Shown in pieces: positions 1,735 through 2,502 of a stretch of DNA of 4,468 bases. Position numbers and translations under genes: made by a program. Origin of the DNA: Escherichia coli. Its GTDB lineage: Bacteria > Pseudomonadota > Gammaproteobacteria > Enterobacterales > Enterobacteriaceae. The stretch lies in assembly GCF_003334785.1 (NCBI RefSeq), contig NZ_QOWV01000046.1; one strand, given 5' to 3'. The stretch's first letter is position 1. Every line of letters begins with the position of its first letter. The notes below the pieces were generated by a model. It was not told the origin of the DNA. It searched no databases and saw only the letters and a program-made list of their open reading frames with translations.

Positions 1735-2502
1735 TTATTTAATCCGGGCCATCGCGTTTCTCAGTGCCAAATCTGCCTCTTCCGTTATATCCAGGCTTTT
1801 CTGCAATACCGCCTCTGACCGGGTCAGTGCCTGACGTGCTGCCAGCGGTTTCCGGATATGCTCCATCGCCAGCATCGTGTCTTCATAGCCCTGCTGACGC
1901 CAGGCGTCGGTATGTGCCGATGTAAAACTGAGCAGACCGCCGCTGTTGCCACCATCACCTGCATATTTCAGCCTTTTCCGGGGACGGATCTCAAGGATTG
2001 TGGTGTCCGGAAAAGCCTGGCGATCCCATAAAGAACCGTCACTCAGATGCGTCACAATCACCATATTGCATCCGGCATCGACCAGAGGCGTCACAGGGGT
2101 ATTTCCCTGCATATTTCGCCATCCTCCCATACCACCATCACCGAACATTGTCCCCTGAACCTCACGGGGACGGAACAGCAGGGGCAGCGCGGCTGACGCA
2201 AGCAGAGCCTCTTTCTGCTGTCCGCGGGGCAGGCTCTGGATATGCTGAAAAACGGCGTTTTTCGTGGTTCCGACACCCAGTTCAGCACGAATGCAGTCAA
2301 TAATATCCTGCATGCCCCCTTCTGTGGGGTACAGCGACACATACAGCGGTAGCCCGTCTGCCAGAGCATCAGTATCAAGATAATGATCCATCAGCGCTGT
2401 CATCGCCATTGCGGTCTTTCTCATCAAATTTATTGACCAGTACAAACAGGCGGCCGGCTGATACGTCAGCAATGGCATTAAGCTCTTTACGGACGTCTTC
2501 AT
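1735..2502 (-). CDS. C-terminal portion of the dynamin-like GTPase gene, read in a different frame (probable frameshifted continuation rather than an independent gene)
   Basis: The ORF overlaps the 3' end of the 2375-3325 ORF by 128 nt. Its first ~35 codons look non-coding, but from about residue 38 (ALMDHYLDTDALADGLPLYVSLYPTEGGMQDIIDCIRAEL) it resembles the G5 region and following helix that normally come 25-40 residues after an NKxD motif. It then continues about 170 aa to the stop at 1735. In-frame ATGs at 2424, 2409, 2403 and 2391 lack a convincing RBS. Confidence 0.5.
   Translation of the reverse strand: MKTSVKSLMPLLTYQPAACLYWSINLMRKTAMAMTALMDHYLDTDALADGLPLYVSLYPTEGGMQDIIDCIRAELGVGTTKNAVFQHIQSLPRGQQKEALLASAALPLLFRPREVQGTMFGDGGMGGWRNMQGNTPVTPLVDAGCNMVIVTHLSDGSLWDRQAFPDTTILEIRPRKRLKYAGDGGNSGGLLSFTSAHTDAWRQQGYEDTMLAMEHIRKPLAARQALTRSEAVLQKSLDITEEADLALRNAMARIK

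Follow-up and report, generated by a model that had tools for sequence, protein, structure and literature searches.

This locus raises the question of whether a dynamin-like GTPase has acquired a lipase-like domain at its C terminus, or whether the two sets of motifs have come to lie side by side in some other way. The window, by which we mean the whole 4,468-nt stretch of Escherichia coli DNA that was analysed, encodes the peptide ASAALPLLFRPREVQGTMFGDGGMGGWRNMQGNTP at 2199..2095 on the minus strand, in which two blocks of the patatin-like phospholipases can be recognized. The original prediction placed this peptide in a hitherto unrecognised domain at the C terminus of the dynamin-like protein, and offered a remnant, a divergent lipid-interacting module or coincidence as explanations. 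The peptide is real; its ORF matches Pfam Patatin and its DNA is 100% identical to that of patatin genes. We conclude, with a probability of about 95%, that window 1735-2402 is the 3' two-thirds of a stand-alone patatin gene that a deletion has joined to a fragment of a dynamin gene, and that the two are best regarded as a recent, non-functional pseudogene pair.

Two gene fragments and their parent locus

All of the genes of interest in the window are on the minus strand. The dynamin-like ORF (3325..2375, 316 aa) and the ORF bearing the patatin motifs (2502..1735, 255 aa) overlap by 128 nt in different frames. The latter is a mechanical ORF (255 codons, 1735..2502) that opens with 34 codons of dynamin DNA in the +1 frame; the start assigned to the patatin remnant by gene callers is the ATG at 2409, which has a purine-rich GAGAAAG just ahead of it, and the resulting 224-aa ORF is called in loci L012-L015 and L017.

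The dynamin fragment (2402..3325, minus strand) comprises native codons 1-308 of a 798-codon CrfC/RdcA-like gene and lies in DNA with 99.4% identity to positions 2476-4544 of the intact reference locus L007 (NZ_CP033850). It qualifies as a GTPase domain of the dynamin type (G1-G4), with a Dynamin_N Pfam match on the 316-aa product and retained G1 (GTMKAGKST, 3103..3077), G3 (DTPG, 2623..2612) and G4 (NKFD, 2434..2423) motifs, the last of which stops seven codons short of the deletion break. Everything after G4 is absent, including the C-terminal ~490 residues, where any helical stalk or membrane-binding region would be expected. The fragment covers positions 1-309 of the 742-position NCBIfam CrfC model (E=1.5e-108) with a score of 364 bits, far under the curated cut-off of 1146, and with 308 native residues versus 798 in the intact gene it is not a full-length protein of the CrfC/RdcA type.

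The arrangement from which the window derives is evident in L007, where three separate genes encode proteins of the dynamin family (3620-6016, 798 aa), the RdcB/YjcZ family (6013-6918, 301 aa) and the patatin-like phospholipases (6915-7985, 356 aa), with a 4-bp overlap between the stop codon of each gene and the start codon of the next and with a gene for a 290-aa GTPase lying ahead of the dynamin gene. In less decayed loci, too, the RdcB-family gene sits between the other two. The patatin gene of intact loci is thus a separate gene located two genes downstream of the dynamin gene, and not an unrecognised domain of its product. Ancestrally the genes formed a three-gene operon on a CP4-44-type cryptic-prophage island of E. 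coli, with cobUST upstream, and DUF932, antirestriction, yeeS, yeeT and cbeA/cbtA genes downstream, followed by tmaR-yeeA-sbmC.

Relative to L007 the window aligns as two abutting BLAST blocks, one ending at 4544 and the other beginning at 7318, that overlap by a 2-nt microhomology ('TG') at the junction (2401..2402, minus strand). In all, 2,775 bp (L007 4545-7319) have been lost. From the dynamin gene codons 309-798 are gone, and of the RdcB-like gene nothing is left; the patatin gene is missing codons 1-134 and with them its start codon, its oxyanion loop and the nucleophile elbow GASIG. The dynamin and patatin genes use different frames, a difference preserved by a deletion whose length is divisible by three, so that the junction is out of frame. 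Up to the junction the dynamin frame gives ...NKFDEKDRNGD, and it then passes into eight codons of patatin DNA read in the wrong frame (DSADGSLS, with the TGA stop at 2377..2375; 2375..2401 in all, minus strand), so that the truncated ORF ends ...NKFDEKDRNGDDSADGSLS*, whereas the intact protein goes on ...NGDGADAVRQK. With separate frames and a dynamin stop only eight codons past the junction, the patatin motifs cannot be assigned to the same protein as the GTPase region. We infer a single deletion by illegitimate recombination between sites sharing only 'TG', which would in one step have removed the dynamin gene past codon 308, the entire RdcB-like gene and the first 134 patatin codons, closed the dynamin ORF after eight foreign codons, and deprived the patatin remnant of its own start codon, oxyanion loop and Ser42 nucleophile.

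Other parts of the window show features of their own. A YeeP-type GTPase gene (3543..4414, minus strand) is a frameshifted pseudogene, represented by ORFs at 4453..4178 and 4196..3543; it differs by one gap from the intact L007 copy, and PGAP labels it 'GTPase family protein, frameshifted' in loci identical to the window. Since the gene is intact (290 aa) not only in L007 but also in some carriers of the same deletion (L015), its frameshift is probably a separate and later decay event. On the 3' side of the patatin gene, E. coli loci contain two conserved hypothetical genes (window 916-1599 and 490-900, minus strand) encoding proteins of 227 aa and 136 aa (WP_000775500.1 and WP_000846713.1), neither of which matches a family in PADLOC; the mechanical ORF at 916..1707 exceeds the annotated gene at 916-1599 in length. 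No Rfam family matched anywhere in the window at E<=0.1.

The patatin remnant and its missing N-terminal part

The remnant (1735..2402, minus strand) corresponds to native patatin codons 135-356 plus the stop codon, and is identical at 668 of 668 nt to both L007 7318-7985 and L001 5084-5751. Two of the four patatin blocks are present in the window ORF, namely block III (A-S-x-x-x-P), as ASAALP at 2182..2199 (A203-P208 of the intact protein, minus strand), and block IV (D-G-[AG]), which contains the catalytic Asp, as DGG at 2131..2139 (D223-G225, minus strand; Asp codon 2139..2137). The intact protein begins MSTEMKTGLVLSGGGAVGAYQ...VSGASIGAF, and includes an oxyanion loop, SGGGAVG, at residues 12-18 (S12-G13-G14-G15) and an elbow, GASIG, at residues 40-44 (Ser42). 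The Gly-rich oxyanion loop of block I (G-G-G-x-x-G) is absent from the window ORF and the G-x-S-x-G elbow with the catalytic Ser (block II, GASIG) lies within the deleted part, bearing out the earlier observation that neither is to be found upstream in the motif frame. The sole literal GxSxG of the window ORF, GNSGG at 1950..1936, comes later than the DGG and occupies a loop that is not conserved and is modelled at pLDDT<50. The intact protein matches Pfam Patatin (PF01734) over residues 9-239 and model positions 1-188 (E=7.4e-24); the window ORF matches positions 141-188 of 191 alone (E=1.2e-5), falling short of the whole-domain profile. What the window contains is thus a piece of a PF01734 member and not a functional member.

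We aligned 22 full-length, stand-alone homologues of ~340-380 aa, with 45-91% identity, from Escherichia, Pectobacterium, Yersinia, Erwinia, Providencia, Vibrio, Pseudomonas and others. Residues S12, G13-15, G40, S42, G44, A203, S204, A206, P208, D223, G224 and G225 are invariant, so that the Asp of the DGG is conserved in 22 of 22 proteins. Since the nucleophile is likewise invariant in these stand-alone homologues, the elbow is missing from the window as a result of truncation and not because the protein is a divergent lipid-interacting module. The suggestion of a remnant was the right one: blocks III and IV are genuine and the elbow is truly absent.

When the intact protein was modelled with AlphaFold (pLDDT 75.7), the PDB structures that matched best were those of PlpD, CapE/CapV, VipD, ExoU, cPLA2 and patatin. 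Profile and fold searches, the checks put forward with the prediction, thus identify a true patatin; it is a truncated separate gene and not a module of the dynamin protein. In the model the deletion strips strands E7-11 and E37-40 together with five helices from the patatin fold, making it unlikely that the remaining fragment would fold natively. Patatin-like phospholipases act through an established Ser-Asp dyad mechanism, from which phospholipase activity would not be expected of a remnant lacking Ser42.

The family also has features beyond the catalytic blocks. An invariant GGW..QGNTP block just past the catalytic Asp and, beyond the Pfam domain (window 1738-1915, residues ~296-355), a predicted single ~60-residue C-terminal helix are both specific to the patatin family of the remnant. 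Many NCBI records from E. coli give the name 'ferredoxin reductase' to N-terminally truncated pieces of the patatin protein (P0017, P0025 and P0041, clusters of 183-435 member sequences), in what looks like a propagated misannotation.

Occurrence of the allele and recurrent deletion

In a megablast search of 5,426 complete E. coli genomes with window 1600-3400, the region was found in 2,614 of them, and only two records, JKHS016 and AST198, matched it contiguously. In both, PGAP annotates a 'dynamin family protein, missing C-terminus', flagged as a pseudogene, and directly after it a patatin-like or hypothetical protein 'missing N-terminus', also a pseudogene (one name used is 'patatin-like phospholipase domain-containing protein, missing N-terminus'). 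The pseudogene status of both pieces is thus already known from the RefSeq/PGAP annotation of identical loci. Among public assemblies, 147 indexed blocks contain precisely this truncated dynamin product of 316 aa, with flanking contexts of several kinds, and its presence there as well as the same out-of-frame junction in two independent complete genomes indicates that the junction is not an error of sequencing or assembly. The identity of the remnant to intact copies shows that there has been no divergence since the deletion, and the open frame is therefore uninformative on selection, either way. One carrier of the window's allele, L016, has a second deletion of 337 bp inside the patatin remnant (L016 6130/6131; L007 7524/7862) that takes out the DGG block, showing that the locus is still decaying; it fits with an absence of constraint on the remnant.

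These data bear on whether the remnant ORF (224-255 aa) might be expressed alone in a non-catalytic capacity, as the divergent lipid-interacting module of the original prediction, for example by binding or titrating partners of intact paralogues. Its frame is still open over 255 codons, gene callers report the 224-aa ORF, the allele persists in many assemblies with varied flanking contexts, and many E. coli strains carry several paralogous island copies (a median of two matching places per genome). Against such a role, the absence of any nucleotide divergence from intact copies gives no sign of adaptation, the strands and helices missing from the model make native folding improbable, the native ribosome-binding and translational-coupling context is gone, and the remnant has itself been further deleted in L016. 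Translation of a non-catalytic fragment is conceivable; a residual role we regard as very unlikely.

Still less likely is a real dynamin-patatin fusion, whether made by +1 ribosomal frameshifting within the eight codons or obscured by a sequencing error that changed the frame. Deletion can yield such fusions, as illustrated by rare in-frame dynamin-patatin chimeras in other assemblies (P0028, P0039, P0051 and P0069), but each of these is a one-member sequence cluster, their junctions differ, and all lack Ser42. A sequencing error is at odds with the recurrence of the out-of-frame junction described above, and inspection by eye of the codons GAT GAC AGC GCT GAT GGA TCA TTA TCT TGA revealed no recognisable slippery site, prfB-like or otherwise. 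Even an in-frame product would be without nucleophile and oxyanion hole. A natural fusion, in one frame and with a conserved architecture, was not seen in E. coli, Vibrio or Pseudomonas, where the genes are separate; the unusual dynamin-lipase fusion first envisaged is accounted for by out-of-frame parts joined by a deletion, which PGAP treats as two pseudogenes. Chance resemblance in a dynamin stalk or other fold, the coincidence of the original prediction, can be dismissed outright in view of the 668-nt identity to an annotated patatin gene, the Pfam Patatin match and the patatin fold modelled for the full-length protein. The locus is accordingly best described as a deletion-made pseudogene pair.

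The window allele is one of many. Public E. coli assemblies contain at least 10 distinct and independent internal deletions of the operon; giving the left and right ends on L007, these include the window allele (4544/7318), L011 (4544/7436), L004 (4566/6673), L018 (4566/7358), L019 (4424/6300 and 6394/7330), L005 (4177/6299), L020 (3905/7346), L001 (4923/6612) and L006 (4829/6833). Three pairs of deletions have one exact end in common (L007 4544, 4566 and 6299/6300) and differ at the other, and of the five ends on the patatin side, four lie in a 40-nt interval (L007 7318-7358, patatin codons 135-149). Descent is possible for the 4544 pair (the window and L011). L004 and L018 share the 4566 end though their flanks are only ~92% identical, making simple, nested parent-child descent unlikely in that case. 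Chimeras P0004 and P0052, too, have the limit of their RdcB segment near L007 6300 (RdcB codon 96/97), a position that adjoins a 12-bp perfect palindrome, TTACCCGGGTAA. Protein-level searches revealed more chimeras of the operon; in a search with dynamin residues 1-450, the best 120 matches were dominated by contig-end partials and added few.

We found no repeats or motifs that explain the reuse of breakpoints, the longest word shared between the hot regions being 8 nt and off the junctions. RecBCD acts on Chi with polarity, and a Chi-like GCTGATGG near the patatin-side cluster was set aside, since it would face the wrong way for an enzyme coming from within the deleted DNA. The pattern is suggestive of hotspots for deletion, or of old junctions at which secondary deletions recur. 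Beyond the window, L007 9939 is another reused breakpoint, at which the DUF932 gene is broken in two alleles (L002/L003 6620; L006 7730): in L002/L003 the broken gene is joined to the antirestriction gene with 756 bp lost, and in L006 the match to the L007 island ends at 9939 with tmaR about 200 bp on. L001 has an inverted segment in the DUF932 region.

The parent operon and its relation to known systems

As a finding, a deletion-made pseudogene pair is ordinary and matters little in itself. Its recognition turns an apparently new domain architecture into a routine deletion pseudogene and avoids a false entry for a dynamin-lipase fusion; its by-products are an exact map of the deletion, breakpoints that look non-random, and the delineation of the parent operon as a conserved and widespread three-gene module.

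That module encodes dynamin (~800 aa), YjcZ/RdcB-like (~300 aa) and patatin (~357 aa) proteins from genes with overlapping stop and start codons, and is intact at L007 3620-7985, L008 2737-7074 and L010 2668-7077. Mid-gene fragments of the dynamin and RdcB-like genes are found in about 45-46% of complete E. coli genomes. Separate dynamin, RdcB-like and patatin genes are also present on mobile islands in Vibrio parahaemolyticus and Pseudomonas fluorescens, at loci that adjoin mobile-element or defence-associated genes, namely those for Imm49, a group II intron reverse transcriptase, a BrxR-like WYL regulator and an integrase. Dynamin/RdcB/phospholipase operons have been described on two islands of E. 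coli MP1, where they are reported to be strongly up-regulated in Kapi1 lysogens and a role in phage defence was proposed (PMC12922286). The module is otherwise mentioned only in passing, a broader literature search returning gene-list mentions, and we found no literature on dynamin together with patatin in phage defence. PADLOC searches with the fragments and with all intact operon and neighbour proteins gave weak likenesses to GTPase domains and phospholipase effectors, and no system match.

If the GTPase pair behaves like RdcA/RdcB of E. coli K-12, it may act as a regulator of the phospholipase. Tentatively, and as a possibility to which we give well below even odds, the operon could encode a new system for defence or abortive infection whose membrane-lytic effector is under the control of the GTPase pair; if so, its many internal deletions could reflect specific breakage or recombination, or counter-selection of an autotoxic system.

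Several known systems invite comparison. LeoA/LeoBC (Eleos) shows a weak likeness in the GTPase domain in PADLOC (LeoA to the fragment, E=1.8e-7; LeoBC to the intact protein, E=8.6e-5), and membership of Eleos was rejected as there is no full-length match and the RdcB-like and patatin proteins match no Eleos component. RdcA (YjdA/CrfC) and RdcB (YjcZ) of E. coli K-12 form a dynamin-like GTPase partner system that regulates the diguanylate cyclase DgcE (PMC6510439). The resemblance to this pair is closer, in that the window dynamin fragment fits CrfC 1-309 and intact loci have an RdcB/YjcZ-family gene directly downstream, although the island paralogues are only about 30% identical to the core RdcAB proteins (PMC12922286). 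Unlike the K-12 pair, the island paralogues are coupled to a patatin gene and not to DgcE, and in the window the partner gene has been deleted and the dynamin gene cut past G4.

Among phospholipases, the best match of the intact parent is PlpD of Pseudomonas aeruginosa (PDB 5FQU/5FYA; phmmer E=2.7e-12, Foldseek E=3.7e-11), whose ASMSIP...DGG aligns to ASAALP...DGG of the window. The parent shares the Ser-Asp dyad motifs and predicted patatin fold with PlpD, CapV/CapE (CBASS), VipD, ExoU and RssA, and differs from PlpD-type proteins in its ~24% identity, its own GGW..QGNTP block and its predicted C-terminal helix; the window fragment has the Asp half of the dyad only. The E. coli island patatin (WP_000102643.1 / WP_000102660.1, 356 aa), encoded by the third gene of the operon described in E. 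coli MP1 (PMC12922286), differs from the window copy in possessing codons 1-134, in being free of the out-of-frame join and in lying beside an RdcB-like gene, and otherwise corresponds to it exactly, window 2402..1735 being identical in nucleotide sequence to its codons 135-356 and the flanking genes matching on both sides.
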